The notes beneath the pieces are model-generated. The model searched no databases, was not told the DNA's origin, and was given only the letters and a program-made list of their open reading frames with translations. A DNA stretch of 64,000 nucleotides from Thermoanaerobaculia bacterium. GTDB lineage: Bacteria; Acidobacteriota; Thermoanaerobaculia; Multivoradales; Multivoraceae. Shown here in pieces: positions 31,529 to 49,162 of this stretch. Each line of letters opens with the position of its first letter. Position 1 is the first letter of the stretch. A program made the translations under genes and the position numbers. The stretch lies in assembly GCA_963664405.1 (NCBI GenBank), contig OY761158.1, positions 3,872,001-3,936,000 on the forward strand, read 5' to 3'.

Positions 31529-32919
31529 TCTTCACCGAATTTCGTTTCCTCTTTTTCTTCGTTGCCGTCTTCGTCGTCTACTGGACTCTGACCTCGCTGC
31601 CGGCCAGGAAGCTCTGGCTGCTGATCGCGAGCTACACCTTCTATGGCGCCTGGGACTGGCGCTTTCTGTCGCTGATCGTGCTCTCGACGCTGGTCGACTA
31701 CTGCGCCGGTTTGCAGATGGCGAAAGACAGACCCGCTGGAGGTCGCCGCTTCTGGCTGATCGCCAGTCTGGTCACCAACCTCGGCATGCTCGGTTTCTTC
31801 AAGTACTTCGGTTTCTTCCTCGATTCGACGGAATCGTTCCTCGACTTCCTCGGTCTGTCGCTCTCGCGGCCGAGCTTGACCGTCATTCTGCCGGTGGGCA
31901 TCAGCTTCTTCACCTTTCAGACCATGAGCTACTCGATCGACGTATACCGACGCCGACTGCAGGCGACCCGCAGCCTGCTCGATCTAGCGCTCTTCGTAGC
32001 CTTTTTTCCGCAGCTCGTCGCCGGACCCATCGTGCGCGCCGCTGCCTTTCTTCCCCAGCTTCGTCGGCCCGCGATGCTGAGCCGGGTCCACTTCCGGCCG
32101 CTTCTCGGACTCTTCCTGGTCGGCTTCATCAAGAAGGCGTGCATCTCCGACAACGTGGCGACGGCGGTCGACCCGTACTTCGCCGATCCGGCGCAATTCA
32201 CCGCCGCCGCGGCATGGCTCGCGATCCTTCTCTACGCCGTTCAGATTTACTGTGACTTCTCCGGCTACTCCGATATGGCGATCGCCTGTGCCGGCCTTCT
32301 AGGTTTCGAGTTGGGCCTCAACTTCGATGCCCCCTATCTCGCCCGGAACCTCCGCCAGTTCTGGCGCAGGTGGCACATCAGCCTCTCGAGCTGGCTGCGC
32401 GACTACCTCTACATACCGCTCGGCGGGAGCCGGGGTAGCGGTTTGTTCACCGCGCGCAACATCTTGCTGACCATGGCTCTGGGAGGGCTGTGGCATGGCG
32501 CCGCGTGGCGCTTCATCGTCTGGGGCCTAATTCACGGAGGCGGGCTCCTCGTCCACCGCCAGTTGTTCGGTACTCGCGACGGGGAGTCGAGCGGAGTCGT
32601 ACGCTGGGCGTCCACGGCCCTCACCTTTTACTGGACTTGCCTGGCCTGGATCTTCTTCCGGGCTCCAAGCATGAGCGATGCATTGCAGATTTGCCGCTCC
32701 TACTTATTCTTCGACAGCCCGGGCTCGACGACGATCGATCCGGCATGGTGGCTGCTCCTCGCCGCCCTGGCGGTCGCTCAGATCGTCGCCCGCAGGATCC
32801 CGCGCTGGTACGCGACAGTACCCGCCTGGAGCTTCAGCCTCGGCTATGGCGCGACCGTCGCCACAGCACTGCTCTTCGTGCGCTTCGAAGCACAGCCTTT
32901 CATCTACTTCCAGTTCTAG
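31525..32919 (+). CDS. MBOAT family O-acyltransferase (AlgI/DltB-like)
   Basis: LPVGISFFTFQ, FFPQLVAGPI, DFSGYSDMA, FWRRWHISLSSWLRDYLYIPLGG, GLWHGA, PFIYFQF. Confidence 0.95.
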   Translation: MIFTEFRFLFFFVAVFVVYWTLTSLPARKLWLLIASYTFYGAWDWRFLSLIVLSTLVDYCAGLQMAKDRPAGGRRFWLIASLVTNLGMLGFFKYFGFFLDSTESFLDFLGLSLSRPSLTVILPVGISFFTFQTMSYSIDVYRRRLQATRSLLDLALFVAFFPQLVAGPIVRAAAFLPQLRRPAMLSRVHFRPLLGLFLVGFIKKACISDNVATAVDPYFADPAQFTAAAAWLAILLYAVQIYCDFSGYSDMAIACAGLLGFELGLNFDAPYLARNLRQFWRRWHISLSSWLRDYLYIPLGGSRGSGLFTARNILLTMALGGLWHGAAWRFIVWGLIHGGGLLVHRQLFGTRDGESSGVVRWASTALTFYWTCLAWIFFRAPSMSDALQICRSYLFFDSPGSTTIDPAWWLLLAALAVAQIVARRIPRWYATVPAWSFSLGYGATVATALLFVRFEAQPFIYFQF

Positions 32920-32953
32920 CGGCGCCGACAACAGTGCGACTGTGGTCGCCGAT

Positions 32954-33646
32954 TCAGAACTCCTTCCAGTTCTTCACCGCCACGCACTGGGGAATTTCCG
33001 CCACCGGCACCACGCCGCCGGCTGCCGTGTTCACCGCGACGCGGAAGCCGAAGCTGCCGAAGCGGCAGGTGGATGGGTAGAGACCCTTCAAGCTGCTCCG
33101 GATGTTCTGCATCTCGGGGGTGTCGAAGGGGTCCACTCCGCTGGTGGTGGACCTCGTCTTCCCGGGGCAGGGACTGTCGTCATGACCCCAGCTGTAGTTG
33201 TCTGGATGGTTGCCGTCCGGCCCGGCGCGGCCGCAGGTTTCCGGGTCGATCTCCGGATCGACGTCGAACTCGAAGCCATACAAGCCGTCGAGCTTGCCGC
33301 CATCGAGGCCGTAGATCTGGAGCAGGAGGTATATCCAGGTCTCGTCCTGCCCGGCCATGGCGTAGACGACGTCGAGATCGGGCCTGAAGACGGACCCCGC
33401 CTGAAAGGGTCGCTCCCAGAAGTCGTTGAGCCAGTCATCGCAATATATCCCGGCTATCGCGGTGCCGTCGGCGAGCTTCTCGTCGACGATGTCGGGCTGG
33501 TCGCACATGCCGTCGGGCAGCTCCGGGCAGCTTTGGCTAGAGGAGTAATGGTCGCCGGTGACGCAGTCGTAGCGGATCTGGGTGATCTCCTAGGCGGCCG
33601 GCGTGCACTTCGGGGGCCGAGCGGTCTTGTACACTGCCGTAACCAT
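32954..33646 (-). pseudogene. Cys/acidic-rich hypothetical ORF with an in-frame TAG (possible gene remnant)
   Basis: Track ORF 32954-33508 continues upstream in frame (EITQIRYDCVTGDHY...) to TAG at 33590-33592, then to ATG 33646. Confidence 0.4.
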
Positions 33647-33660
33647 CGGAGGAACCAGGC

Positions 33661-34722
33661 TTGAAACAATTCACCAAATCACTGGCGACGATCGCTCTTC
33701 TGGTTGTCGCCAACCCTGGCTTCGCAGCCGAGGACGACGCTATTCGGCGCACCGCAAGCGGGCGCCCCGACTTGACGGGCAACTACGACGCCGCCACGTT
33801 GACGCCGCTCTCGCGTCCGGAGAAGTATGGCGACAACCTCTATTTGAGCCGCGAGGAAGCCGCGAAGATCGAGGCGGAGGAGGCCTCGGTGATCGAGTCA
33901 CGATCCCTGGCCAGCGATCCGAATCGCGAGCCGCCGCCGGAGGGTGGCGACGGATCTTCGGGAGGCGCCGGCAACGTCGGTGGTTACAACACTTTCTGGA
34001 TCGACCGGGGGAGCGATGCCTTCGCGGTGGAGGGAAAGTTTCGTACTTCGATCCTCGTCGATCCGCCCAACGGGCGCATTCCTCCAAAGACCGAGGCGGC
34101 GGCCAAACGCGCGCAAGAGCGCCCGAGACGTCGCGCCAACGATGGCACTCCTTGGTGGCTCGAAAATGACGGCCCCGGTCCCTACGACGGTCCTGAGTCT
34201 CTAGGCATCCCCGAGCGTTGCATCGTGGGATTCACCGGCGCGACGCCAACATTCCCCAGCCTCTACAACAATTACAAGAGCATCGTGCAGACCGAGGATT
34301 CGGTGATGATCCTGATCGAGATGGTGCACGATGCTCGCGTCGTGCGGATGAACTCCGAGCACCCGCCGGCCGAGATCAGGAAGTGGCTTGGCGATTCGAT
34401 CGGCTGGTGGGAAGGCGACACCCTGGTTGTCGACACCACCAACCTCCATCCCAAGGCCGTTCTCCGTGGCGGCTCCGAGAACATGCACGTCGTCGAGCAC
34501 TTCACCAAGCTCGCGGACGGCAATGTGCTCTACCGTTTCACCCTGGAGGACGACACAGTGTGGACCGCGCCCTGGACCGGCGAGTACATATGGCGCGCGA
34601 GCGAGAACAAGGTGTACGAGTACGCTTGCCACGAGGGCAACTACTCGATGGGGAACATTCTGCGCGGGGCCCGATTGCTCGAAGCCGAGACGCTGGGAAA
34701 GGTCGGCTCGACCGGCGAGTGA
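33661..34722 (+). CDS. Conserved-type secreted hypothetical protein
   Basis: Signal peptide; GRPDLTG, DPPNGRIP, WLGDSIGWWEGDTLVVDT, YEYACHEGN. Confidence 0.8.
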   Translation: MKQFTKSLATIALLVVANPGFAAEDDAIRRTASGRPDLTGNYDAATLTPLSRPEKYGDNLYLSREEAAKIEAEEASVIESRSLASDPNREPPPEGGDGSSGGAGNVGGYNTFWIDRGSDAFAVEGKFRTSILVDPPNGRIPPKTEAAAKRAQERPRRRANDGTPWWLENDGPGPYDGPESLGIPERCIVGFTGATPTFPSLYNNYKSIVQTEDSVMILIEMVHDARVVRMNSEHPPAEIRKWLGDSIGWWEGDTLVVDTTNLHPKAVLRGGSENMHVVEHFTKLADGNVLYRFTLEDDTVWTAPWTGEYIWRASENKVYEYACHEGNYSMGNILRGARLLEAETLGKVGSTGE

Positions 34723-34761: not shown

Positions 34762-34894
34762 CTAGGGAGCGTGTCCGAGTATTCGTCCTGAGCCGTTTCT
34801 CGGAGCGAATAGGAAGCAACGCCTGAGTGCGCCGTCCTCGGCGCCAAAAGACAACTAGGCGGAGGAAATGATAGCCATCATTTCTGGAGCCTAG
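34762..34894 (-). repeat. Repeat family A, copy 3
   Basis: CTAGGGAGCGTGTCCGAGTATTCG...CATTTCTGGAGCCTAG; the right CTAG is the stop of the ABC-2 permease. Confidence 0.9.
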
Positions 34895-35664
34895 CTCAAG
34901 AGCTTCTCGCGACGTTCCATCCGACGAAGCGCCAGAAACAAGAGCATCGCGCCTCCGCTGAGGACCGACAGCCGGTTGATCAGGATCTTTTCCAGCCACA
35001 GCGGATCGTCGCTCGTCGAGGCGATCTCGAAGGGTTTTAGAAAGAGGTCGTAGCTCGTGCCCTGTAGCGTTCCGTAGGTGATCATGACGAGGATCACGAA
35101 CCCCAATGCCAGCATGCCGGCGGCGTTGGCGCTGCGGGTGAGCACAGAGAAGAAGAAGGTCAGACTGGCGACCAGAAACGCAGGCACGAAGGCGTTGAGA
35201 CCGCCCCAGACGAACGGAAACTCGGCGAAGAAAAAGTACGAGATTGTGCTCATGGTCATGAGTGTGACGAAGAGAACCGCAACAACCGCTAGCAGCCGCA
35301 CCGACCACACCAGATAGTGCGAGCTCGCGGTGCTGAAGAGCACTTCGAGGGTGTTCGAATCACGCTCTTTCGGGACCAGATCCATGACCAGGTAGATGCC
35401 GAGAATCGTTCCAGGCAGCTCGACCAGAATGAAGAGCGCTTGCTCGACACCGAAGCCGGAGCCCGGCTGGTAGACCGCGAACGCGTAGAGAATGGCGTAG
35501 TAGGTGACGATCCCGGCGGCCATGAAGAGCAGCTTGCGCCGAAATACGACCCGGCCGGAGAGGCGAAACAGCGCCGCCAGGCTTCCCAGTAGCTGTCCCC
35601 AGCTCAGCTGCGCGGTCGGCGCTTCGGCGTCGCGCAGGCCTGTAGCCGGTTCGAGTCTGCTCAT
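34891..35664 (-). CDS. ABC-2-type permease
   Basis: About 6 TM segments; ERDSNTLEVLFST coupling-helix-like motif; start overlaps the stop of the upstream ATPase domain. Confidence 0.8.
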   Translation of the reverse strand: MSRLEPATGLRDAEAPTAQLSWGQLLGSLAALFRLSGRVVFRRKLLFMAAGIVTYYAILYAFAVYQPGSGFGVEQALFILVELPGTILGIYLVMDLVPKERDSNTLEVLFSTASSHYLVWSVRLLAVVAVLFVTLMTMSTISYFFFAEFPFVWGGLNAFVPAFLVASLTFFFSVLTRSANAAGMLALGFVILVMITYGTLQGTSYDLFLKPFEIASTSDDPLWLEKILINRLSVLSGGAMLLFLALRRMERREKLLS

Positions 35665-38600
35665 GCCGCCCTCCGGTGCTCGCCGAGGAGATAGATGTAG
35701 GCATCTTCGAGGGTCGGCTCGACGTCGACCGCTGTGAAGTCTGGTGGTGACTCGGTTACCAGAAATCTGACCCGGATGCCGGCGGGTGTCCTCAGGTGGG
35801 TGATGATGTCGAGGTCAGCCTCGACCTGATGGAAGACTTCGTCGTCCAGCACCGCTTCCCACACCTTCCCCTGTGCCTGCACCCGCATCGCGTCGGGAGA
35901 TCCGGTGTAGATGCAGCGCCCACTGTTGATGACCGCGAGTCGGTTGCAGCTGCCGGCGATGTTCTCGACGATGTGGGTGGAGAAGATCACGATGCGGTCT
36001 TTGCTCAGACGGGCCAGGAGGTTGCGGAAGCGAATTCTCTCGACCGGGTCCAGGCCCGCCGTCGGCTCGTCCACGATCATGATCTGCGGCATATGCAACA
36101 GCATCTGGGCGATCCCGATGCGCTGCTTCATGCCCCCCGAGTAGGTGCCGATCAGGTCGTCCTTGCGGTCGAGCAGGTTGACCTGCTCCAAGCAGGCCAA
36201 GACCCTCTCCTCACGCTCGGCTTTGTGTTTGAACCCCTCGAGCAGACCCCTGTATTGGAGGTAGTCGTAGCCGCTCATGTTGTCGTAGGTGCCGAAGTGC
36301 TGAGGCAGATAGCCGATCAATCCCTGTACCTGCTGGTGCCTGGCGAGGTTGACCCCGTTCACCGACACCGAGCCGAAGGTCGGCTCGAGCACCTGGCAGA
36401 GGATCCGCATCAGGGTCGTTTTGCCGGCCCCGTTAGGGCCCAGGAGACCGAACATTCCACGACCGATCTCCAGGTTGACCCCGGCCAGAGCCGTAAAGGT
36501 GGCTTTCTTGGCGCCGAGGATGGGTACGGCTGCGGCAACGCGGTAGACCGGTCCTCGCAACCAGCGCGACCTTCCACTCATTCGGTCGATGTCGACGACG
36601 CCGGATTCGACTCGACCGGCCAACCATCGAATCCATCGCAGGGCAACGAAGGTGAGCGCCGTGGCGATCGTCACCGAGGGGAGCTCGAGTCGCTGCTGGA
36701 TGTAGACCAGAAGGAGCGCCAGGAAGAAGTAGCGGATGCCGAGGGTTATGGCCTTCGGCGCCGGCGACCCCATCAGCAGGCCCAGGGAGTGGGTGAGGTG
36801 AACCAGCAACCCCCAGGTGGCTGCGGAGATGACATAGAGCCACAGTGGGTCGACGAGGTAGGTGTGAAGAAAGATCAACAACGCCAGCAACGGAGACTTC
36901 CACAGCAGGCCGTCTTTCACCGAGCGCCGATCGAGAGGGTCGATCCCGGCGTCGATCAGTTGCTTGGTGCGGCGCTCGAAGCGGCCCCATTCGAGGCGAA
37001 GGCGCCCCGGAGCGCCGTAAGTCTTGGTCAGGGTGTTCAGCGATATCGAGTCCACCGGCGGACGGTCGCGGCGGGCGAGGGCGCGAGCGTGATGGGCGCA
37101 CTCGACAGTCCAGACCGCCGTCAGAGCGAGGAGCCATATCGGCACCGCCGCGAGACAGGTCCAGAAGTAGCTTTCGTAGCGAAGCTGCACTCCAGCCATC
37201 GCGATCGCTGTGGCGCCCGTCGCCAGGCCGACTCCCAGCCATCCGAGGCTGCGGAGCCAGTGGCGGACCTGGTCGATGCCCAGGTAGGCGACCGGAACGA
37301 AGATCAGCGTCGAGACCATCGACACCGCGAGGCCACCGACGACGGTGATGGCGAAGGGCGGCCAGATCTCGAAGTCGCCGCCGAGCGCAAGAGTGAGGGG
37401 GAAGATGCCAAGCAGGGTCGTCGCCGAGGTCATCAGGATGGGCCGAACGCGGGAGCGCCCGGCAGCGAGGACGGCGCGCTCGCGGCGGAAGCCGCGCTGG
37501 CGAAGGCCGGTGACGGCGTCGATCAGAATGATCCCGTTGTTTACGGCGATGCCGATCAGCACCACGAAGCCGAGAAGAGCCATCGGACCAGCCTCGGAGG
37601 TCAGCCCGGTGCCGGTCAGAAGCAGGGCCAGGCACGAGCCGATGACGGCGGTGGGCAGGGTGCAGAAGATGACGATCGGAGAGGCGAAGGACTCGAACAA
37701 GGCGGCGAGGATCATGTAGACCAAGAGAGCGGCGATCCCCATCATCCAGTAGTAGATGGTGTCGACCTCTCCCTCGACGATCTCCGCCGTATAGCCGGGG
37801 GGTAGGACCATGTCGGCGACGAGTAGGCGAACCAGATCGCGAGCCGCGTCGACCCGCGGCTGAGAATCGAGCACTTCGCTGGTGAAGCGATAGGTCAGCA
37901 CCACCCGCCGCGACTGATTGGTGCGCAGGATGGTGTTGCGGCCTTCGTCGGTCCTCACCCTCGCCACTTCTTCAATCGGGGTGAGCTCCCCGGCCGGGTC
38001 AGGATCGGGAGCCGTCGAAGATCGTCTAGGCCGATCGTGTTGTCTTCGAGGTCCTCGATGTAGGTGACCTGGATCGGCGTCTCGGTGCCGTCCGCCTCAA
38101 GGAAGTTGCTCGCGGTCTGGGCTCCGAGTGGGTTCGCCTGGGTGATCGCAGCTAGCACAGTCTCGACCTGGAGGCGGCGGTCGAACATCGCGATCGGGTC
38201 CGGAATCACTTGAACTTCCGGACCTGCGCGGGCCAGATCGATCGAGATCGAGCCCGCATCGACCTCGCCATCGATGAGCTCGAGGCGATACTGAAGATCA
38301 TCGGCGATCATCTGCAGGGTCGCGAGATCGTTGCCGCGGATCACCAGACTCTCTGACGCGGGACCTTGGCCGAGAGTGAAGCCGCCGGTTGTACTCGCGC
38401 CTCCCCGCGATCCACCCGCAGCGCGCCCGCCCCGGCCGCCGCCACCGCCACGACCGGCCGTGGCCGCCGGATCGTAGCCGACATCGCCGCTCTCGATCGC
38501 ACTGAGGGCGTCCTCGAGGGAGTCCTGAATGGCCTCCACGGTGCCGCGCTCAGGGGCGAGAGAGCGGTCGACGAGCTTGACCTCGACGGTCCCCTGGGCT

Positions 38601-40372
38601 TCCTCGACGTTGGTGGTGAATCGCTCGATCTCGTCGACGTCGGTGACGACCGCCTCGACCTTCCGCACCAGCGCATCGGTCGCGTCGAGAGTCGCACCCT
38701 CGGGCAGTGACGCATAGATCGTGAAGCCACTCTCTTCCTCGAGAGACTGCTGCTGGAGGATCAGAAAGAAAGCTACGATCAAAGTGGCGATCAGCGCTGA
38801 GAAGACCCCCACCGCGATGCGCACCCGGTGGCGAAGACTGGCCTTGAGAAGGACGGTGTACATCTCGAGCAGGCGGCCGGTGCCGAGGGGCCTCGGGGCC
38901 GCTCCAGAGAGCGTCCTCGCTCCGGTCATCGGCACCAGTGTCAGCGCGACCAGCAGGGAGGCCAACAGGGGGAATGTGATGGCCAGCGCCAGCTCGCGGA
39001 TGATGTCCTGGAAGTCGCTTTGGATGAAGACCACCGGTAGGAACACCGCTATCGTCGTTGCGGTCGAGGCGACGATCGCCCGACTCACCTCCGCAGTGCC
39101 CTCGCGCGCCGCGTCGATCGGCGACTTGCCACGCTCGAAGTGCTTGAAGATCGACTCCATGACCACGATGCCGTTGTCGGCGAGCATCCCCATCGACAGC
39201 GCCAGGCCGCAGAGCGAGAGAACATTCAACGACAGATCGAAGGCATACATGAGGTTGAAGGTGATCAGCAGGGACGCCGGGATGGCGAGCAGCAGGATCC
39301 CGACGAAGCGCGCGCTGCGCAGGAAGAGGAAGAGCACGCCGAGTCCGAGAAAGACTCCGACGATCGCGGCCTGTCGCAGTGTTGCGAGCGCCTCGCGCAT
39401 CAAGGCGGCTTGATCGTCGGTGACCAGGAGCTCGATGCGCTCGACGGCGAGGTCGCGGTTGAGCCTCGCGATCGTCGCATGGAGCTCATCCGCCACCGAG
39501 ATCAGGTTGGCCTCGCTCTCCTTTTGAATGCGGATGTTGACCGCCTCGAGCCCGTTGACGCGGCTGAGGTCGGTTCGCTCCTGCAGCCCGTGCTTGATCT
39601 TGGCGATGTCGCCTAGGGTGAGCTGCCCGTCCCGACGTATCACCACCTCGCGGATCTCGGCGAGCGACTCGAACTGACCCGAGAGGCTGACGGGAAAACG
39701 CTGGTTGGCATCGAAGACACGCCCGATGTAGGTTCGCGGCACGTTGACCTCGTTGATCGCCCTCGTGATGTCGTTCATCGACAACGAGTGAGCGGCAAGC
39801 AGGTCGGGGTCGACGATGATCTCGATGTTGCTCTGTCGGCCGCCCAGCGGCATGGCGGCGGCGACGCCCTCAACCGCCTCCAGCTCCGGGCGGATCTTCT
39901 CTTCGGAGAAGTCGCGCAACCAGTTGAGGTCGCCCTCGCCGAGCACCTGGAGAGTCATCACCGCACTCGATGTGACCGAGGTGTCGAAACGCTGCACTGT
40001 GAGCTGGGTCCGCTCGGGCAGGTTGGGCAGTAACTGACCCATACGGCGACTGACTTGCAGCTCGGCGAACTTCATGTCGGTCGCGGGCTGGTAAGAGACC
40101 GTCACCGTGCCGGTTCCGAGCCGCGCCTGCGCGTCGATCTGCGCCACCCCCTCGAGCTTGCCGATCTCTTCCTCGACCGGCATCACCAGGTCTCTCTCGA
40201 CCTGCTCCGGCGACAGTGTCGGTTGAGATACAGAGACGAAGATCTGGGGAAAGACCACCTCGGGCATGAGCTCGACATCGAGGCGACCGAGCGACACCAC
40301 CCCCAGCATGCCCAGGGCGATGAAGAACATCGAGGTCGTTACTGGGCGGTCAACGGCGAGCTTGGAGATCAT
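35661..40372 (-). CDS. RND permease fused to extra TM helices and a C-terminal ABC ATPase (about 1570 aa, joined across a 1-bp frameshift)
   Basis: Track ORFs 37955-40372 (RND N-part) and 35661-37967 (RND C-part plus NBD) join if one G is added to GGG at 37996-37998, giving LPILTPAGELTPIEEVARV. NBD has GPNGAGKTT, YSGGMKQR, IVDEP and STH. Confidence 0.8.
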
Positions 40373-43300
40373 GCCGCTTCTTCTCTCCGCCGCAGCTTCT
40401 CGACCAGCTCGTAGACCACCGGTATGAAGAGCAGGCTCGTCACCGTCGAGCTGAACAAGCCGGCGATGACGGCGATGGCCATCGGCGCGCGAAGCTGGGC
40501 TCCCTCACCAAGGCTGAGCGCCATCGGTGTTAGCGCAAGCATCGTGGTGGCGCTGGTCATCAGAATCGGCCGCACTCTGTCCTGCGTGCCTCGCAGCACC
40601 GCTTCACGAATCGGCATCGAGGCGCGAAGTCGGTTGGTGTGATCGACGAGAATGATGGCGTCGTTCACCGCTATGCCCCCGAGCATGATGATGCCGATGA
40701 AGGCCATGACGCTGAGCGGCTCGCCCAGCGCCCAGAAGGCGACGACCACGCCGGCACCGGCCATTGGAACCGTGAGCATGACGGTGAAGGGATGGAGGAG
40801 CGACTCGAACAAGGACGCCATGACCATGTAGACGAGGATCACCGACAGGCCGAGTGCGAAGCCGAGGCTGGCGAAAGACTCGGCGCGCTCGCGCTCCTCG
40901 CCGCCGATCAAGACTTCATATCCGGGGGGTAGGGTCACTTGCGCGACCAACCCGTCGATCTGGGCAATCGCCTCGCTGAGCACCGCGCCCTCGACGAGAT
41001 AGCCGCTGAGACGACCCATGCGCCGCTGGCCTTCGCGAAGAATCTCGCGCGGACCGTCGACGATCTTTGGGTCGGCGATGTCGCCGAGGGTCAGCTGGGC
41101 TCCATCGGCGTCGATGCGGAGACTGCGAAGCTCCTGCAGCGTGACGTCCTCGAAGCCGACGCGAATGTCGCGCGAGCGCTGATCCTTTGAAAGCTCCCCG
41201 GCGAGCTCGCCGGACAGTCGTCGCTCGAGATCGGCGATCAAGGACTGCGGTGTGAGTCCGAAGGCGGCAATGACGTCGTCTCTGAGGTTGAGATCGACCT
41301 CGGGCTGGCCGCCTTGGAAGCTGGTGGTGACGTTGTAGATGGCCGGAAGCTCCTCCACCAGGACCGCGATCTCGTCGGTCAGCCGGCGCAGCGAGTCGAG
41401 ATCGTCACCGATGACTTCGACCTGTATCGGCGCCGCTCCGGCTCCCAGGACCCCTTGCAGGGCGGTCTCGTGGAGCTCGTAGCTGACCTCGAGGTCGGGA
41501 ATATGAGTGAGCTCTCGATCGACGGCCTCGACGAGCTGCCCGATGCTGCGGCGTCTTCCACTTGCAAGACCGACAGAGAGGTTGGCTCGATTGGGTCCGC
41601 TCGGTTCCCCGACGTTGGAGATGCGAGACGGATCGAGACCGGCGCGCGCGTAGACCGTTCTCACTTCCGCAGAGCCGATCTCCTCGATGATCGATCCGAC
41701 CCTCGCTGCAACGCGATCGGTCATCTCCAGGCGTGAGCCTTCCGGTAGCGCGAGGTCGACGTTGAACAGCCCCTGGTCCTCGCGCGGGATGAACTCGGCC
41801 TCGATCGAGCCGGCGAGCCGGTAGGTCACGGCAGCGATCGCGGCAATCAGGACGAAGACCACGAGCTTGTGGTCGAGCGCGACGGTCAGCAGGGCGAAGA
41901 ACCTGGGGCTCTCTTTGGGCTCCGGGGAGGCGGTGCGGCGACGGAGCAGGCGAGAGGTGAGCATCGGCACGACCGTCATCGCGACCAGGAGTGAGGACAC
42001 CAGCGAGAAGGCGACAGTCCATGCCTGCTCCTTGAAGAGCTCGCCGACCAGACCCTCCACATAGACGATCGGCAAGAAGACCGAGACCGTGGTCAGAGTC
42101 GAAGCGAGAATCGCGACGCCGACCTCCGACGCCCCGATGACCGACGCCTCCCGTGGATCGGCGCCGAGCTCGTAGCGGCGATAGATGTTCTCGATGACGA
42201 CGATGGCGTTGTCGACCAACATTCCCGCGCCTAGCGCCAGCCCACCGAGGGTCATGATGTTGAGGGTCAGACCTTGGAAGTACATGAGCGTGAAAGTGGC
42301 GAGAACCGAGATCGGAATCGCCAGTCCGATCACCAGGGTCACCTTGAGGCTGCGCAGGAAGAGCAGTAGAACCGCGACTGCGAGGACAGCGCCGTAGAGC
42401 GCCGCTTCCTCGACCTCCTGGACCGCTTGTTCGACGAAGCGCGCCTGGTTCTCGACCACGGTGAATTCGACACCCGGTAGGTCGAGCGCCAGCTGCTCGA
42501 GGTCCCTAAGGACAGTCTGAACGACACTGACGGTGCTGGCGTCGGCTTCCTTGTAGACCGCCAGCCCCAAACACTCGACTCCGCCAAGGCGCACGATGGT
42601 CTCGCGCTCGGCGTACTCGAGCACGACGCGCCCGACGTCGGCCACGTAGACCGGAACCCGCAGCGTCTCTTCGTCGGCCGTCTCGGTCCCGCCCGCCGCG
42701 GTACCGACGGCGTCGCCGGCGCGCTCGCCGACGATCAGGTTCTCGACCTCGGTGATGTCGCGGAGGCGCCCAAGGCCCTTGACCTGATAGGACTGGTCGT
42801 CCTGCTCGAGACGACCCCCCGACACATCCTGGTTCGCCTGCTTGATCCGCTCCACCACGGTCGCGGCGGTGAGCCCGAAGGCCTCGAGGAGATACTCGTC
42901 CAGGATGATTCGGATCTCCTTTTCGGCGTCTCCCTCGATCTCCGCCGAGGCGACACCGGTGAGTGCTTCCAGCCTCGGCTTGACCAGAGTGTCGACCGTG
43001 CCAAGAAGCTCGTCGAGGTCGGCTTCACCGGTCGAGGACACCGCAATCCTGGCGACGGGCAGAGCCTGCGGATCCTCCTGGGTCACGTCGATGGTGTCGA
43101 TATCTTCGTCGGTAGCGTAGGTGCCCGTTCGCTTTTGGACGTCGAGCAGAGCGAAGTCCATGTCGGTGTCCCAATCGAGCTCGGCTACCACGACGGTCTG
43201 GCCGGAGCGGGTCATCGAGTAGACCCGATCGACACCACTGACGGTGCTGATATCGCGCTCGAGCCGACGCGTGTAACGTTCTTCCATCTCCTGCGGCGAT

Positions 43301-43461
43301 TTGCCGGCGACCCTGAGATCGACTGTGATCACCGGCGTCTCGACATTGGGGAGCAGATCGGTGCCGAGGCCACCGAGCGAGATCCAGCCGAGCAGGAGGA
43401 TGGCAAGGGTCGCCATCGTGACGGTGACCGGGTAGCGGGTCGAGAGCTCGGGTAACGACAT
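40369..43461 (-). CDS. RND permease (AcrB/MdtB-like)
   Basis: 1030 aa; GMLVDNAIVVIENI, GIAVNDAIILVD, RVRPILMTS. Confidence 0.92.
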   Translation of the reverse strand: MSLPELSTRYPVTVTMATLAILLLGWISLGGLGTDLLPNVETPVITVDLRVAGKSPQEMEERYTRRLERDISTVSGVDRVYSMTRSGQTVVVAELDWDTDMDFALLDVQKRTGTYATDEDIDTIDVTQEDPQALPVARIAVSSTGEADLDELLGTVDTLVKPRLEALTGVASAEIEGDAEKEIRIILDEYLLEAFGLTAATVVERIKQANQDVSGGRLEQDDQSYQVKGLGRLRDITEVENLIVGERAGDAVGTAAGGTETADEETLRVPVYVADVGRVVLEYAERETIVRLGGVECLGLAVYKEADASTVSVVQTVLRDLEQLALDLPGVEFTVVENQARFVEQAVQEVEEAALYGAVLAVAVLLLFLRSLKVTLVIGLAIPISVLATFTLMYFQGLTLNIMTLGGLALGAGMLVDNAIVVIENIYRRYELGADPREASVIGASEVGVAILASTLTTVSVFLPIVYVEGLVGELFKEQAWTVAFSLVSSLLVAMTVVPMLTSRLLRRRTASPEPKESPRFFALLTVALDHKLVVFVLIAAIAAVTYRLAGSIEAEFIPREDQGLFNVDLALPEGSRLEMTDRVAARVGSIIEEIGSAEVRTVYARAGLDPSRISNVGEPSGPNRANLSVGLASGRRRSIGQLVEAVDRELTHIPDLEVSYELHETALQGVLGAGAAPIQVEVIGDDLDSLRRLTDEIAVLVEELPAIYNVTTSFQGGQPEVDLNLRDDVIAAFGLTPQSLIADLERRLSGELAGELSKDQRSRDIRVGFEDVTLQELRSLRIDADGAQLTLGDIADPKIVDGPREILREGQRRMGRLSGYLVEGAVLSEAIAQIDGLVAQVTLPPGYEVLIGGEERERAESFASLGFALGLSVILVYMVMASLFESLLHPFTVMLTVPMAGAGVVVAFWALGEPLSVMAFIGIIMLGGIAVNDAIILVDHTNRLRASMPIREAVLRGTQDRVRPILMTSATTMLALTPMALSLGEGAQLRAPMAIAVIAGLFSSTVTSLLFIPVVYELVEKLRRREEAA

Positions 43462-43491
43462 CTCAGGTCACTCGGAAAGAGTGAAGGGTGG

Positions 43492-44600
43492 TCAGCTCGA
43501 GCTCGGGGGCCCGATCTCGTCGGTAACGCGAACCTGGGTGCGCGAGCGCAGAGTTTCGTAGTTGCTTGCGATCAGGCGCTCCCCTTCGGACAAGCCATCG
43601 ACGACCTCGACTCTGGCCTCGTCTTCCAGGCCGGTCTTGATCCTCCGCTCCTGGGCCACGCCGCCTTCCTCGACGAAGACGATGTCGCGACCGCCGCGAG
43701 AGAGGATCAGCTGTCGCGAAATCACCAGCACGTCCTGGCGTTGATCGACGACGATGTCGGCCTTGACGAACATGCCGGGGCGAAGGATCAGATCGGGATT
43801 GTCGACGGTGACCTCGATCCGGAAGGTCCGTGTCGTCGGATCGATCGTCGGATCGATCACCGCGATCCGTCCCGAGAAGAGAAGATCGCGGAAGGCGTAG
43901 TTGGTGACTCGGACCTCCTGGCCGATCGCGATCAGCGTCATCTGCGAGTTGGGGATCTTCAGATCCACCACGACACCACCGTAGTCGCTGACCTGCCCGA
44001 TCACCGTGTTCGCCTCGACGACAGTCTCCTCGGCGGTGTCGACCAGGCCGGTCAGGTAGCCCGTCAGCGGAGCGAGGACGTTCATCTTCCCGAGCTGAAT
44101 ATTGGCGTCGGTGATGTCGGCCTTGGCGTCGGCGACGATTTTCAGCGCCGACTGAACATCGGAGCGAAGGGCGATCCCGTCTTCGAAGAGCAGCTGTTGC
44201 TCCGCGAGGCTGTCCAGCCCGTCCTGGAGGGCGATCTCGAGCGACTCGAGACGGATCGAGTTGGTGTACTCATCGCTCTCGATCCTTGCGATCTGCTGGC
44301 CGGCCTTGACCCGCGTGCCCTCCACCGGCTTCCGCCCCCGAGTCCAGACGTTGCGAAGGTTTGCACCCGAGGACCAGGGACGTAGTGGAGCTCGCCGCGA
44401 ACCTCTACCAGGATGTCGGCCGCCCGGTTGGCTCGCAGGCTTCCAGTGGTCGAAACGAAGGACTCGATCGTCCCGATCGTGACCGGCTGCACCGTCACCG
44501 GAACGACCAGGTCGACGACGCTCTCCACCGGCTCTTCGCGGCAGCCGGCCAGCGCGACCGCGGTCACCAAAAGAACTGCCGTTAAGCTCCTGAGTGTCAT
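43492..44600 (-). CDS. RND periplasmic adaptor lipoprotein (frameshifted near 44340-44385)
   Basis: N-part (ATG 44600, LAGC lipobox, VPVTV..TTGSL) is in one frame; the C-part (GTRVKAGQ, APLTG, IDPTTRTF, LRPGMF) is in another. Confidence 0.8.
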
Positions 44601-44765
44601 TTCCGTTCACTTTCCAGGGATCGCAGCGACCTTTTTACAACGCTGGAGCCCCTTGGCGGCCCCAATTCGGGAGGTCTTACAAAAACTTTACCTGGATACT
44701 CTGGATGACCGAGGCTCTTCCGCGCAAGACTATTCTTAGGGCGTTATCCTTTTTCGAGAGAGTCC

Positions 44766-45668
44766 ATGGACATACAGATCTCTTCGCTGACCAAGGTCTA
44801 CCGAGAGGGAGCGCCGCCGGCACTGGACGACCTCAGCCTGCGGATCCGTAGCGGAACCTTCGGTCTTCTCGGGCCCAACGGCGCCGGCAAGACCACCCTG
44901 ATCAAGATCCTGTCGACGCAGATGAAGGCCAGTGCCGGCGCCGTTGTGATCGACGGCTTGCGCATCGACGTCGAGCGAGCTCAGGTCCGTGATCGCCTCG
45001 GTTATCTGCCGCAGCACTTCGGTGCCTACCCCAAGCTCACCGCCTTCGAGTTTCTCGACTACATGGGGCGGCTCGCCGATCTCCACCCCAGGAAGAAGCG
45101 CAGGGAAGCCGTTGAACAGGCGCTCGAAGCCGTCGGTCTGGCCTCGGTGCGCGACAGACGAACCGGCACCTTCTCCGGCGGCATGACGCGGCGCCTCGGC
45201 ATCGCCCAGGCCATCCTCTCCGATCCTCCCTTCCTGATCGTCGACGAGCCCACCACCGGGCTCGACCCCGAGGAGCGGATTCGCTTCCGCAAGATTCTCG
45301 GGCGCTTGAGCCGCGACCGCACCATTCTGATCTCGACCCACATCGTCGGCGATATCTCGAGCACATGCGAGGAGATCGCTCTTCTCGATCGCGGCCACCT
45401 GTTGTTTAGTGGCCCGCCCGAGGAGCTCGTTCGCCATGCCGAGAACAAGACCTGGAAGGTCGAGATCGACGATGCCGGATTTGCCGAGCTAAGCCGCCTC
45501 TGGCACGTCGTATCGGTCACCCCGGAAGGCGACGGGCTGACGGTTCGGGTCGTCGGCGACGACACTCCGCCCCCTGGCGCCGTACCCCTTTCGCCCAATC
45601 TCGAAGACGCCTACGTCTATTTCATGGCGATCGAGGGACAGGCTCCCCAATCCCATGGCAGTGGGTGA
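44766..45668 (+). CDS. ABC transporter ATP-binding protein (ABC-2 type)
   Basis: GPNGAGKTT, FSGGMTRR, IVDEPTTGLDP, STH, PNLEDAY. Confidence 0.95.
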   Translation: MDIQISSLTKVYREGAPPALDDLSLRIRSGTFGLLGPNGAGKTTLIKILSTQMKASAGAVVIDGLRIDVERAQVRDRLGYLPQHFGAYPKLTAFEFLDYMGRLADLHPRKKRREAVEQALEAVGLASVRDRRTGTFSGGMTRRLGIAQAILSDPPFLIVDEPTTGLDPEERIRFRKILGRLSRDRTILISTHIVGDISSTCEEIALLDRGHLLFSGPPEELVRHAENKTWKVEIDDAGFAELSRLWHVVSVTPEGDGLTVRVVGDDTPPPGAVPLSPNLEDAYVYFMAIEGQAPQSHGSG

Positions 45669-48600
45669 TGAGAGCGCTGCGCAACATCGCCGGTGTCGCC
45701 CGCTACGAGCGCATCATGCTGATGCGAACCACTCGTTTCCGCGCTCTCGGGGTTGTAGGGATCGCTTTTCCTGTCGTCTTCGGGATCGCTCTCGCGATTG
45801 CGGAGTCACGCGGTGGAATCGGCGAGCTTCCCTCGGCCCTGGGCCTCGATGCCTTCGTTCCTTTCTACCTGTACACCTACGTCCAGTCGGTGGTCATCGC
45901 CTTCGTGGCCGGCGGCTTTCGTGCCGCCGACGAGCAGGCCCAGGTCGAGGAGGTCATCGCTGCGCGCCCGCTGTCGACCGCCGAGCTGGTGATCGGGAAG
46001 TACCTGGGGGTGGTGCAGTCTCTGACCCTTCTCAGTCTCAGCGTCATCGGCCTGACCCTGGCGATCCAGGCTGCCAAGCTCAGCCTCACCGGAACGCCCT
46101 TCCTGCTGGCGCCGTACCTCGCCTACTTCTTCCTGATGACGCTCCCGGCGCTCATCTTCATGTCGGCGCTGGTGTTCTGCCTGGGCGCGGTGCTCAAGAA
46201 TCGCACGGCGGTCGCGCTGGTCTCGATCGCTTACGTGCTCGCCGTCCTCTTCTTTCTCGGCACCCGTTACGGCGGCATCTTCGACTTTGGTGCTTTCTTC
46301 GCGCCGCTGGTGTATTCCGACCTGCTCGGGCTCGGCGATATCACCCGGGTCATCGAGATCCGAATCTTCTATCTGGCCTTGGCCGCCGCTCTGCTCGGGT
46401 TCGCGGTGATCGCTTACCCGCGGCTACCGCAATCGGGTCTCTTCGGACGAATGGGTCCTGTTGCGGCGGCGGGAGGTCTGGCCGTGGCCGTCGGTGTGTT
46501 CGTCACCATGGCGCGCCACGACGCCGCGGTAAACGACTACCGGAGCGATCTCTTCGCGACCCAGATCCAACACGGCGACCTCCCGGTACCTTCCGTCGTG
46601 CACTACGACATCGACGTCGACATTCTGGAGGGCGGGGTGCCGCTGAGGGCCCGGGTCGCGATGCAGCTCGTCAACGAGAACGACATCGCCATCGACCCGC
46701 TGATCTTCACTCTCAACCCGGGACTCCTTCTCACCGGGGTGTCAGGCGCGGGGGGGAACGACCTGCCTTTCGAGGTCGACGGCTCGGTGGTGCGAGTGGG
46801 CTTGCCGATGGCGCCGGGCGCGGAGGCCTCGCTCTCGATGTCGTACTGCGGGGACATCGACCGCGACGCTTTCGATCTCCTACGTCGGGTAGCGCGGCTC
46901 GAGAAGCGGACCGGCCCGATCCACAAAGGTGACTTGACGGCGTGGATCCGTGACGAGTCGGTCTTTCTACCGCCGCGCAGCCGCTGGTATCCGGTGCCGG
47001 GCGTCGACTACGGTAACGACGAGGGACGTCCGGTTTTCTTCTACACCGCTCAAATCACCGTCGAGGTGCCAGGCGGATTGGAGGTCGTAACGCAAGGGGT
47101 GCCAAGCGTCGGAGTGTCTCGTGGCGCCGAGGTCGGGGAGCGCGGTCGATCGGTGTGGACCGTTGACACGCCCGTGCCCCAGCTCTCCCTCAACGTCGGC
47201 CGCTACGAGGTGCTCGAGGCCGAGGCAGGTGACACGACAGTTGCCCTCTACGTGCATCCCTCGCATCTGGCGCAGGTGATGGGCTTCGAGGACGCCACCG
47301 AGGAGGTCCTGTCGCTGGTCGAGCAGATGCTCCGGGCGATGGCGCAAGAGACCGGGCTGCCCTACCCCTACCCGCGTTTGTCGGTCGTCGAGATCCCGTT
47401 CCTCGTGCAGTGGTACTACGAAGGATGGGAGGAGAACGGAGGCCTGACCCAGCCCGGCATTCTGATGCTCGAAGAGGACGTGCTCGTCCAGCGCGCTCAG
47501 GGCATGGCGCGCTTGGCGAATCGGATACTGAGCTCCGAGCTCGGCCGTAACCAAGAGCCGGCATCGATCAAACGTAACCTGCTTGCCAATACGATCTTCA
47601 GCGTGTTTCTCGCCAGCGAAGGCCAAAGCAGCGGTTTGTTTCGCTCACCCCTGGTGCAGCTCTGGTCGTTCAACCGCCGCTTCGGGGGCGACAACTCTCC
47701 GCTGATAGCGCGGGGAATGCCTGTGTATCTGCAGGAAGACAAAGCAGAAGACATTCGTATCGCGATGTTTCAGCGCGGTCGCGGTGGCTCACGCGGCGCC
47801 GGAGGAGGCTTCGGGGGTCGCGGCGGCGACCGCTCTGGTGGTGGCAGGGGGCCTGGCCAGTTCCGGGGTGGTCCTGGCGGCCCCGGCGGGCGTCGCAAGC
47901 TCGGCGAGGACGCGACCTGGGACGAGATGCTTGCGGCGATGCAGCAGAGCTCGCTGGCCGAGATGGACCCGGAGGCCGACCCCGATCTTTACCGCTCGGT
48001 CCTCGATGTCAGGGGCATCACGCTCTTTCGGATGATCGAGGCTGTTGTGGGGGACGACCGGTTTACCAACGCCCTCGAGGCCTTCGGCGAGGCCTCCGAA
48101 TTCGGCGAGGTCACTCTCGACGCTTTCGAGCAAGCGATGCTCCCAGAAGGCGCCGACGAGGATGAGATGAGTCGCGAGAGCCTCGATCGACTGATCGGTG
48201 ATTGGCTCTACGGCAGCTACGTTCCTGGCTACACCCTGACCCGCACCGAGGCCAAGAAGGTCGAAGACGGGTGGGGCGCTGTTGTCTACCAGGTCATGGT
48301 TCGCATCCGTAATGGCGAGCCGGGGCGCGGTTTTGTTCAGGTCGAGCTCAGCGGCCGCGGCGACCAGATCACGAAGAACGTCGAGATCGACGGGGGGCAG
48401 GAGGTGGAGGTCTCGATGATCATTAGCACGCGGCCCTCGTTCGTCACGGTCGAGCCCTTCCTGGCCAAGAATCGGCGTGCGCTGCGCTCGCCTCTACGCA
48501 TACCCGAAGAGGTCGAAGCCGGGTCGCCCGAGGAGTATGTTCGGGTGGTGACCGGGGAAGAGGCCGCTTCGACCGAGATCATCGTCGACAACGAGGACGA

Positions 48601-49162
48601 CGGCTTCTCGATGCCGGTGCGCCGTGTGCAGCGTTATCTGCGCCCGGAGCTCGAAGGGGGCAACTGGAACGTGCTCGAGCACCGCTACGCGTTCGGACGC
48701 TACGAGACCAATTTCAGATCCAAGTCGGGTGCCGACGGTGCGCAGCCGGCGCAATGGGCGGCGACGATCCCGCATAGCGGGTACTACGACGTTGCTTACT
48801 ACTTCCTGCCTCGACGCATCAATGGCAGGCCGGTGTTCTTCGGCGCCGCTGATACTTATCGCTTCACCATCTCCCATGGTGGAGAACGAACCGAGATGGC
48901 GGTCCAGACCGATCGGCTCCAGCCCGGTTGGAACCAGCTCGGCCGCCTCATCTTCGAGGCTGGCCAAGAAGCTACCGTCGAGCTAGCAGATCTCGGTGAT
49001 GGCCGAATCTACGCAGACGCTGTGCGCTGGCGCTATATCGACCCCGAGAGCCCCAACGCCGTCTATGACGAGGGTCTTTCGCCTTGGGAGTCAGGCGGGC
49101 CTGGTGGTTTCGGTGGTCGCGGCGGTCCAGGGGGCGGGGGTGGTGGTAGGCGCGGCGACTAG
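45665..49162 (+). CDS. ABC-2 permease fused to an inactive M1-aminopeptidase-like domain and a Golvesin/Xly CBD-like domain
   Basis: N-terminal TM bundle with RPLSTAELVIGKYLG; M1-like YDIDVD, PYPYPRLSVVE, LFRMIEAVVGDDRF and DWLYG but no HEXXH; C-terminal IIVDNED...GWNQLG...ADAVRW. Confidence 0.75.
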   Translation: MMRALRNIAGVARYERIMLMRTTRFRALGVVGIAFPVVFGIALAIAESRGGIGELPSALGLDAFVPFYLYTYVQSVVIAFVAGGFRAADEQAQVEEVIAARPLSTAELVIGKYLGVVQSLTLLSLSVIGLTLAIQAAKLSLTGTPFLLAPYLAYFFLMTLPALIFMSALVFCLGAVLKNRTAVALVSIAYVLAVLFFLGTRYGGIFDFGAFFAPLVYSDLLGLGDITRVIEIRIFYLALAAALLGFAVIAYPRLPQSGLFGRMGPVAAAGGLAVAVGVFVTMARHDAAVNDYRSDLFATQIQHGDLPVPSVVHYDIDVDILEGGVPLRARVAMQLVNENDIAIDPLIFTLNPGLLLTGVSGAGGNDLPFEVDGSVVRVGLPMAPGAEASLSMSYCGDIDRDAFDLLRRVARLEKRTGPIHKGDLTAWIRDESVFLPPRSRWYPVPGVDYGNDEGRPVFFYTAQITVEVPGGLEVVTQGVPSVGVSRGAEVGERGRSVWTVDTPVPQLSLNVGRYEVLEAEAGDTTVALYVHPSHLAQVMGFEDATEEVLSLVEQMLRAMAQETGLPYPYPRLSVVEIPFLVQWYYEGWEENGGLTQPGILMLEEDVLVQRAQGMARLANRILSSELGRNQEPASIKRNLLANTIFSVFLASEGQSSGLFRSPLVQLWSFNRRFGGDNSPLIARGMPVYLQEDKAEDIRIAMFQRGRGGSRGAGGGFGGRGGDRSGGGRGPGQFRGGPGGPGGRRKLGEDATWDEMLAAMQQSSLAEMDPEADPDLYRSVLDVRGITLFRMIEAVVGDDRFTNALEAFGEASEFGEVTLDAFEQAMLPEGADEDEMSRESLDRLIGDWLYGSYVPGYTLTRTEAKKVEDGWGAVVYQVMVRIRNGEPGRGFVQVELSGRGDQITKNVEIDGGQEVEVSMIISTRPSFVTVEPFLAKNRRALRSPLRIPEEVEAGSPEEYVRVVTGEEAASTEIIVDNEDDGFSMPVRRVQRYLRPELEGGNWNVLEHRYAFGRYETNFRSKSGADGAQPAQWAATIPHSGYYDVAYYFLPRRINGRPVFFGAADTYRFTISHGGERTEMAVQTDRLQPGWNQLGRLIFEAGQEATVELADLGDGRIYADAVRWRYIDPESPNAVYDEGLSPWESGGPGGFGGRGGPGGGGGGRRGD

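Follow-up and report, generated by a model that had tools for sequence, protein, structure and literature searches.

A candidate hybrid RND-ABC transport cassette with a predicted membrane-split ATPase domain and a peptidase-like ectodomain in a Thermoanaerobaculia bacterium

This study concerns a gene cassette at positions 34891-49162 of a 64,000-nucleotide stretch of the genome of a Thermoanaerobaculia bacterium (GenBank assembly GCA_963664405.1, contig OY761158.1, positions 3,872,001 to 3,936,000, forward strand); the whole stretch is called the window, and positions are those of the window unless stated otherwise. The cassette encodes an adaptor, two resistance-nodulation-division (RND) permeases, two ATP-binding cassette (ABC) nucleotide-binding domains (NBDs) and two ABC-2-type permeases. 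In teaching, proton-driven RND pumps and ATP-driven ABC transporters figure as two alternative ways to power efflux across the envelope. In this cassette the second RND permease (RND2) belongs to a protein family in which an RND permease runs on into an ABC ATPase (RND2::NBD).

Genes and features of the cassette

The genes lie in two divergent units, with the following features (aa, amino acids; nt, nucleotides; ORF, open reading frame; TM, transmembrane helix).

34891..35664, minus strand: small ABC-2-type permease P0004, 257 aa (ABC2_membrane_2, E 3.7e-05, 23.6 bits, under the 27.2 cut-off)
35661-37967, minus strand: ORF P0001, 768 aa (ACR_tran positions 794-1019 at residues 2-230; ABC_tran at 496-637)
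35661..36515, minus strand: NBD core fused to RND2, P0001 residues ~485-768 (ABC_tran at 496-637, E 2.6e-27)
36603..36929, minus strand: predicted four-helix membrane insertion within the NBD, P0001 residues 347-455 (AlphaFold2 model; hydrophobic sequence)
37014..37055, minus strand: predicted NBD strand 1 and A-loop 'ISLNTLTKTYG', P0001 residues ~305-318 (model strand 307-317)
37071..37250, minus strand: two predicted extra transmembrane helices past RND TM12, P0001 residues ~240-299 (model helices 203-264 and 267-299)
37251..37997, minus strand: C-terminal part of RND2 (end of the porter domain, TM8-TM12) in the P0001 frame (ACR_tran 794-1019; homologues align from 37997 downwards)
37995..37997, minus strand: RND2::NBD frame break, one base short in a C run (tblastn frame change)
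37955..40372, minus strand: N-terminal RND2 ORF P0002, 805 aa (ACR_tran 1-651, E 1.7e-122)
40369..43461, minus strand: RND1, 1030 aa, complete as an RND permease (ACR_tran, E 1e-213, positions 4-1020 of 1021)
43492..44337, minus strand: adaptor (membrane fusion protein), main part (HlyD_D23, E 1.3e-23; TIGR01730 RND_mfp)
44338..44369, minus strand: adaptor frame break, 32 nt (two tblastn pieces in different frames)
44370..44600, minus strand: N-terminal part of the adaptor with signal peptide, lipobox LAGC and first strands (translation)
44601..44765, no strand: divergent intergenic region separating the two units (sequence; layout shared with loci L099-L102)
44766..45668, plus strand: free ABC ATPase, 300 aa (ABC_tran, E 2.3e-30)
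45665-49162, plus strand: large permease P0003, 1165 aa, whole gene (Golvesin_C and a weak Peptidase_M1 match)
45665..46573, plus strand: ABC-2-type membrane domain of P0003, residues 1-303 (six helices in the AlphaFold2 model and a seventh leading out)
46574..48214, plus strand: predicted M1-aminopeptidase-like ectodomain of P0003, residues ~304-850 (Foldseek; zinc motif missing)
48656..49027, plus strand: Golvesin_C beta-sandwich of P0003, residues 998-1121 (PF25275, E 7.1e-14, 52.4 bits, over the 31.6 cut-off; model strands)

Every coding region named by a first-pass annotation of this DNA (the adaptor, RND1, RND2, the ABC ATPases and the permeases) was found again between 34891 and 49162, and its count of two NBDs and two ABC-2-type membrane subunits is borne out by the ORF listing together with Pfam and NCBIfam scans. 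The fused gene's stop and the start of P0004 share 4 nt, and the last ~14 residues of P0002 are out of frame. Neither FtsX nor MacB_PCD is among the Pfam matches of the seven cassette proteins. The adaptor ORF, given in the ORF listing as 43492-44610 on the minus strand, scores 151.3 bits against TIGR01730 RND_mfp (cut-off 94.9); its description as a lipoprotein agrees with the signal peptide and the 'LAGC' motif in the frame of 44370-44600, but the gene is frame-broken, which had been overlooked. The same holds for the fusion of RND2 with an ABC ATPase: the junction is in frame as described, but RND2::NBD is spread over two ORFs in this copy, and the break between them had escaped notice.

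RND1 is matched by RND_permease_2 at 587 bits, under the cut-off of 1250. The ACR_tran match of RND2 is divided between two ORFs (1-651 and 794-1019), and an intact homologue from locus L010 matches 4-1020. RND1 carries 'VDNA' in TM4, 'VNDA' in TM10 and 'RVRPILMT' in TM11, and the alignment with Protein Data Bank (PDB) entries gives 'LADNG' for TM4 of RND2. At what we take to be the relay positions of AcrB, D407-D408 in TM4 and K940-N941 in TM10, RND2 aligned to solved RND pumps has D-N and N-N; RND1 has D-N in TM4 and N-D in TM10, and both keep 'R.RPILMT' in TM11. The D-N/N-N pattern is invariant in the fusion family and recurs in five stand-alone RND paralogues of the genome. On account of these paralogues the pattern was dropped as evidence that RND2 has lost its proton relay and is driven by ATP; it is, judging by the alignments, a trait of the subfamily rather than a loss, and gives no sign that the fused RND gave up protons.

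As the first-pass annotation had stated, no TolC gene lies in the locus (zero OEP genes inside 34891-49162). This holds for the window, but a TolC-family gene inside the locus had been missed in three loci of other phyla (L019, L022 and L020). The genome has seven OEP loci outside the cassette, the nearest at 4751-5830 on the minus strand (genome 3876751-3877830). This gene stands beside another RND gene (75-3098, minus strand; genome 3872075-3875098), the two probably forming an ordinary tripartite pump.

The RND2-NBD fusion and its family

The RND part of P0001 ends at about residue 235, and the reading frame continues without a stop codon into the NBD. In an AlphaFold2 model of P0001 (74 homologues; mean predicted local distance difference test (pLDDT) 85.7, predicted template-modelling score (pTM) 0.71), helix 203-264, which continues TM12, and helix 267-299 are followed by beta strand 307-317, helix 322-339, four membrane-length helices (347-370, 374-398, 405-427 and 430-455), helix 468-480 and a complete NBD. 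Strand 307-317 is the NBD's own strand 1 with its A-loop, in which K315 is invariant and Y317 nearly so in the 74 rows. The fused NBD is thus split by the four-helix insertion in the model, because its strand 1 and A-loop precede the four helices. As modelled, the linker is made up of six extra membrane helices, four of which lie between strand 1 and Walker A; their number being even, the NBD would be left on the cytoplasmic side.

The fused NBD looks catalytically complete from its motifs: fusion alignments of 29 and of 74 rows show no variation in Walker A, the Q-loop, the SGGM signature, the DEPT of Walker B, the D-loop or the H-switch (G..GAGKT, Q, SGGM..R, VDEPT.GLD and H), and the full set of NBD motifs is also present in the free NBD. 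The NCBIfam matches of the NBDs to GldA and DrrA are strong but under the cut-offs, drrA ranking first or second for both. The top Foldseek matches of the P0001 model are TM_1403 (4yer) and NosF (7osf_B, 7o0y_B); all are matches of the NBD, and the six extra helices of the model found none in this search. The nearest atlas clusters to linker plus NBD are 480- and 551-aa 'ABC transporter ATP-binding' proteins of Bacteroidota, similar in look to P0062, a database protein of 526 aa that begins with Met and has two TM, strand 1, four TM and an NBD, the RND part being absent. Unfused forms of the membrane-split NBD may therefore exist, or entries such as P0062 may be truncated gene calls.

Fusions of ACR_tran with ABC_tran, on whose occurrence elsewhere the first-pass annotation had made its proposal depend, are abundant as single ORFs. 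In a search of 41 genomes of the window's order, where counts come from the matches listed and are lower bounds, stop-free ORFs of 1610-1648 aa match P0001 from residue 3-14 to residue 762-763 in at least 11 of 40 relatives, namely in all ten genomes of genus g11 and in G008; in eight more (G004, G005, G009, G014, G015, G025, G030 and G031) the NBD stands at the end of a 1319-1894-aa ORF. Among the best 150 matches from 1.84 billion cluster representatives, 45 are 1344-1601 aa long, and in each of them Walker A, signature and Walker B occur once, at the C-terminal end. At E<=1e-30 there are at least 162 proteins of 1345-3840 aa, and PF00873 and PF00005 occur together in all 120 of those listed. 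The nearest long fusion proteins have 1559-1570 aa and 72-79% identity. Source names include Gemmatimonadetes/Gemmatimonadota, Acidobacteriota, Latescibacteria, KSB1 and, from Bacteroidota, Fermentimonas and Tannerella, and the proteins are annotated merely as 'efflux RND transporter permease subunit', 'ATP-binding cassette domain-containing protein' or 'AcrB/ABC-type ... ATPase subunit'. The fusion is therefore not a chance pattern of ORFs; it defines a widely conserved family. Two further searches bear on its spread: a probe made of the linker only matched 17 of 301 genomes across the phylum, yet none of five known g11 holders of the fusion, and so undercounts and misses diverged copies; a locus search with the full-length alignment and generic NBD motifs, which is not a census, gave three fusions (L019, L020 and L022) among the 80 loci retained. 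A locus of Massilia (L028) was rejected, as it does not hold a fusion.

The window cassette is 57-76% identical to cassettes of families f20 and f38 of the same phylum (G042, G094, G078 and G060, corresponding to loci L099-L102), and only 36-39% identical to cassettes of genus g11 in its own family (L009, L010). Such values point either to a pair of old cassette lineages or to transfer inside the phylum; going by what sources call the homologues nearest to it, the window copy would be an instance of a Gemmatimonadota type. A maximum-likelihood tree was built from 19 fused NBDs and 16 free ones, leaving out the free NBDs of L022 (at the start of its locus), L018 and L104 and the L103 rows. In it all fused NBDs fall on one side of a single branch (support 93/95; 93% of bootstrap trees), so that the fusion may have had a single origin. 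Fused and free NBDs fall into matching sub-groups: the window with L099/L100 and then L101/L102; L009/L010/L016; and a diverged 'class 2'. The two thus seem to have been inherited together as a fixed pair, although such parallel branching is no proof of co-evolution, the loci being kin.

Gene neighbourhood, permeases and frame breaks

The ORFs of 20 loci were labelled by BLASTP against the seven window proteins, some labels being checked with Pfam and HHalign. Six parts (free NBD, large permease with ectodomain, adaptor, RND1, RND2::NBD and small permease) occur together in every complete labelled locus. They stand in this order and in one direction in L009, L010 and L016 and in two loci of Bacteroidota metagenome-assembled genomes (MAGs), L019 and L022, where an OEP (TolC-family) gene is placed between the large permease and the adaptor. 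A divergent layout like that of the window, with intact fusions of 1563-1588 aa that are 61-76% identical to P0001, is found in L099-L102. The order is shuffled in L020 (adaptor, NBD, small permease, RND1, large permease, RND2::NBD, OEP) and in the class 2 loci L011-L015 and L017; in one of the latter, L014, HHalign shows a 1022-aa gene to be homologous to the P0003 family (probability 96.7%, E 4e-10) and a 250-aa gene to be weakly so to the P0004 family (probability 62%). Three loci were scored incompletely, L018 and L104 being partial DNA and L103 rearranged with a truncated RND1. The small permease gene lies directly 3' of the fused gene in 12 loci (L009, L010, L016, L018, L019, L022 and L099-L104), and in L009 (27-3228, G020) three tandem small-permease paralogues of 229-230 aa each follow the fused gene.

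Because three layouts hold the same parts, the two divergent operons of the window are one unit that is inverted in its clade. The first-pass annotation had proposed to look for the six-gene neighbourhood across phyla, and the set is indeed conserved, through three gene orders; its worry that the two operons might occur independently is answered by the single co-directional operon of genus g11, G004 and two Bacteroidota MAGs. Adjoining the cassette, at 31525-34722 on the plus strand, an MBOAT-family acyltransferase gene (E 2.3e-28) and two ORFs without Pfam matches converge on the small-permease gene; this group could be an acylation unit for an envelope polymer, and in other loci none was seen linked to the cassette.

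The large permease P0003 (AlphaFold2 model: pLDDT 82.3, pTM 0.80) is predicted to begin with an N-terminal interfacial helix and six membrane helices, after which a seventh helix extends as a long stalk (259-303). Beyond the stalk the model has a beta domain, a helical domain and two beta-sandwich domains, the last of which is Golvesin_C. From the seven helices and the cytoplasmic N-terminus usual for ABC-2 permeases, the ectodomain would be periplasmic. Foldseek against the PDB matched it to IRAP, ERAP1/2, aminopeptidase N (APN), factor F3 and EryP with E from 4e-17 to 1e-14 over 644-733 columns at 9-12% identity; the best match was IRAP 8cgw_B (E 3.7e-17, template-modelling score 0.41 on the target). 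The Peptidase_M1 Pfam match of P0003, at 18.5 bits, is under the cut-off of 27.7, and neither HExxH nor GxMEN occurs in any of 61 members of the P0003 family. An 'HPxH' pair is conserved instead (H531 in 55 of the 61, H534 in all), as are several Glu, Tyr and Trp residues. The ectodomain is thus, according to the model, an M1 fold without the zinc motif. The label 'pseudo-peptidase' was a fair one, since the M1 fold lacks HExxH and GxMEN throughout these 61 members.

Some of the 122 homologues of P0004 are named by JGI as NosY-type 'multi-copper enzyme maturation permease', and members of the P0003 family also bear the NosY-type name 'ABC-type transport system involved in multi-copper enzyme maturation permease subunit'. 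ABC2_membrane_2 matches the P0003 homologue of L010 at 29.5 bits, over the cut-off of 27.2, and the P0003 and P0004 families align with each other at an HHalign probability of 54% (E 1.3e-4). Complex prediction lends weak support to binding of the small permease to the fused linker and NBD: P0001 235-768 with P0004 scored 0.59, the best of three controls 0.00, with contacts agreeing to at least 71% and partner pLDDT of at least 69. Of 80 solved complexes, 58 come up to the mark applied, as do 2 of 110 mismatched pairs, and scores above it of 0.60 or less belong to only 7 of the 80 solved complexes plus both passing mismatches. Gly/Arg-rich low-complexity loops, such as GRGGGGGRGGRAAGGSRGG and RGRGGSRGAGGGFGGRGG, are also present in the predicted periplasmic regions of RND2 and of the large permease, at 38300-38420 (P0002 ~650-690, porter domain), at 47783-47899 (P0003 707-745) and in the tail of P0003 at 49067-49159; both alignments show such loops in the family consensus, their pLDDT is <50 in the P0003 model, and RND2 and the permease might touch or be tethered to each other through them.

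The window copy of the cassette is interrupted in two genes. The two RND2 ORFs (37955-40372 and 35661-37967) overlap by 13 nt in different frames. With tblastn, four homologues of 73-79% identity (P0155, P0156, P0160 and P0165) read '...LPILTPAGELT...' straight across the join; in the window 'LPILT' is in one frame and 'PAGELT' in the next, one C being missing from the minus-strand C run at ~37995-37997. In the adaptor, the frame of 44370-44600 differs from that of 43495-44337 and 32 nt lie between them, where adaptors of L099, L100 and L101 have a single codon by tblastn; homologues from L010 and L022 likewise give two tblastn pieces in different frames, and the N-terminal part retains 62% identity to the L099 and L100 adaptors.

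We consider it probable that both frame breaks are real, and therefore that this copy is probably inactive or decaying. That both are assembly errors in an intact and functional copy seems rather unlikely to us, although the RND2 break is a one-base difference within a short homopolymer, the genome is a single 6.78 Mb contig as is typical of long-read assemblies, and another OEP gene of the genome is also in two open frames. In that gene (G000:C1:1077324-1078554) the two OEP repeats lie in different ORFs of 346 and 256 aa, and it is possibly another broken efflux gene. Against assembly errors stand the 32-nt stretch in the adaptor, which is unlike a homopolymer slip, and the unbroken ORFs in which the matches to Ile-, Val-, Leu- and Met-tRNA synthetase and rpoC lie (1056, 880, 825, 690 and 1421 aa); when RND1 was searched by tblastn, the other RND loci of the genome gave no frame change. 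When contigs of four public runs were compared with 37500-38500, those of X1 (one study) and of X3 and X6 (another study) matched the window at 37995 with no inserted base, although one or more of these runs may be the source of the assembly. In a contig of X8, a seawater metagenome, one G inserted behind 37995 restores the frame, with 11 other differences in 486 positions (~2%). No slippery heptamer for programmed frameshifting was noticed at 37995 on inspection by eye only. Another damaged cassette is L103 (G201:C5, 11302-15414), where a 257-aa C-terminal piece of RND1 abuts a partial large-permease ORF on the opposite strand and neither adaptor nor free NBD was labelled.

Proposed mechanism and relation to known systems

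The RND half of the cassette resembles MdtABC and MuxABC, and the ABC half NosFY and DrrAB. As in MdtABC-TolC and MuxABC-OpmB, a pair of RND permease genes stands in tandem behind a single adaptor gene, and MdtB (9lyq_B) is among the best PDB sequence matches of RND2. RND1, however, scores far under the NCBIfam cut-offs for MdtB (326 vs 1584) and MdtC (369 vs 1774), RND2 continues into six TM and an ABC ATPase, and the cassette adds two ABC-2 permeases and a second NBD; to our knowledge no Mdt or Mux permease carries an NBD or extra helices. NosDFY(L) shares the NosF fold nearest to the fused NBD (29-31% identity), the NosY-type names and a large periplasmic domain tied to the permease, but the NosD beta-helix and nearby nos genes are absent here, where a dead M1 fold sits on the permease and one NBD on the RND. 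MacAB-TolC likewise combines an ABC transporter having a periplasmic domain with an adaptor and TolC. MacB, however, whose membrane domain is of the 4-TM FtsX type, replaces the RND, whereas the permeases here are ABC-2-like and RND permeases are also present. With the M1 aminopeptidases (APN, ERAP1/2, IRAP, tricorn factor F3) the ectodomain has its fold in common, but its catalytic motifs are gone in 61 of 61 members, and here an ABC-2 membrane domain serves as its anchor and a Golvesin_C domain comes after it. The nearest functional analogy is the export of phthiocerol dimycocerosates (PDIM) in mycobacteria, where an RND protein and a DrrA-type ABC-2 exporter serve one envelope lipid: the RND protein MmpL7 and the ABC-2 transporter DrrABC are both reported to be needed (PMC11539658, PMC8427324). 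Those proteins are separate products of unfused genes, and MmpL belongs to another RND branch, without adaptor or TolC and without an M1-like ectodomain.

The earlier statement that no characterised system has this layout agrees with the literature searched, where looking for an RND-ABC fusion and for the permease-M1 family brought up no paper. In the first 300,000 characters of the 2021 Chemical Reviews article on tripartite systems (PMC8277102) the words 'fused', 'hybrid' and 'chimeric' are used solely in other contexts.

We propose a two-stage relay, to which we would give an even chance, in which an ATP-driven ABC-2 module is tethered to a proton-driven tripartite RND pump. The fused NBD would pair with the free NBD, and the two would serve the small and the large permease, all four parts making up a single heterodimeric ABC-2 transporter that is held against the RND trimer. 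Powered by ATP hydrolysis, a substrate of amphipathic or polymeric nature would leave the cytoplasm or inner membrane and move into the M1-like/Golvesin_C ectodomain or past it. The proton-driven RND, presumably a heteromer of RND1 and RND2, would then take it up periplasmically and expel it by way of the adaptor and a channel in the outer membrane, the outer-membrane factor for this two-paralogue pump being presumably encoded elsewhere in the genome. The pairing of the NBDs, that of the permeases and the direction of the hand-over are all inferred, and a peptide- or glycan-bearing cargo is our guess from the dead peptidase fold and the sugar-binding-like sandwich. A stronger version, which we regard as doubtful, has the ABC-2 heterodimer and the RND heterotrimer conformationally coupled through the six-helix linker and the split NBD, giving a continuous, dual-energised path across both membranes for a substrate picked up in the cytoplasm or inner leaflet; such a transporter class would unite what textbooks handle as two alternatives.

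Several points weigh against the proposed relay. An RND trimer and an NBD dimer are mismatched in symmetry; the three tandem small permeases of L009 do not fit a strict 1:1:1:1 count; and the homology of the two permeases is marginal, given the probability of 54% and the match of P0004 below its Pfam cut-off. The weak pass in complex prediction shows likeness more than binding, since NBD-permease pairs resemble solved complexes, and the window copy itself has two frame breaks.

There are three other readings of the mechanism. The ABC module might act as a mechanotransmitter, as in NosDFY, LolCDE, FtsEX or MacB, the ATP cycle working the periplasmic M1-like/Golvesin_C domain while nothing crosses the inner membrane; where the RND porter domain opens, this domain would capture, hold or release a cargo of the periplasm or the outer leaflet. 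We think this improbable. NosDFY acts on a periplasmic partner, and the nearness of the fused NBD fold to NosF, the NosY-type JGI names of both permease families, the attachment of a large ectodomain through the seventh helix and the long stalk at 259-303, and a dead M1 fold that suggests binding rather than catalysis all agree with such a role; but the small permease has no ectodomain, and the ABC-2/type V relatives DrrAB, Wzm-Wzt and TarGH are real exporters. Alternatively, the cassette would hold two independent transporters for the same or related substrates, working in sequence or in parallel, and the fusion would just secure their co-expression and co-localisation, with neither a conformational link nor a direct passing-on of substrate. 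RND2 has its TM4 Asp and TM11 Arg as in the stand-alone paralogues and is probably still run by protons, both NBDs have complete motifs, and MmpL7 and DrrABC are both required for PDIM export though separate proteins. Even so this reading appears quite improbable to us, as a covalent link through six extra helices, conserved over several phyla and apparently of one origin, exceeds the needs of co-expression and the six parts stay together through three gene orders. We attach very little probability to an ATP-driven or ATP-gated RND, in which the fused NBD would act on RND2 through the extra helices, taking over from proton coupling or regulating it, and leave the ABC-2 permeases to the free NBD as a separate transporter. 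It would account for an NBD sitting on the RND polypeptide and for Asn at the AcrB D408 and K940 positions of RND2, invariant in the fusion family, but the stand-alone paralogues have the same residues, the small ABC-2 permease gene follows the fused gene directly in 12 loci, its product weakly passes complex prediction with linker and NBD, and a lone NBD without a partner cannot form the usual ATP sandwich.

An RND permease and an ABC motor thus belong to one polypeptide and one conserved gene set across several phyla, and its holders include, by source names, gut- and mouth-associated Bacteroidota. Structural interest attaches to the predicted membrane-split NBD and to the dead M1-peptidase ectodomain as a possible cargo receptor, and the architecture is directly testable, as cultured relatives with intact operons exist. 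Should the parts cooperate as proposed, the cassette would be the first dual-energised, two-stage export path, and it could explain how some large or amphipathic products cross both membranes.

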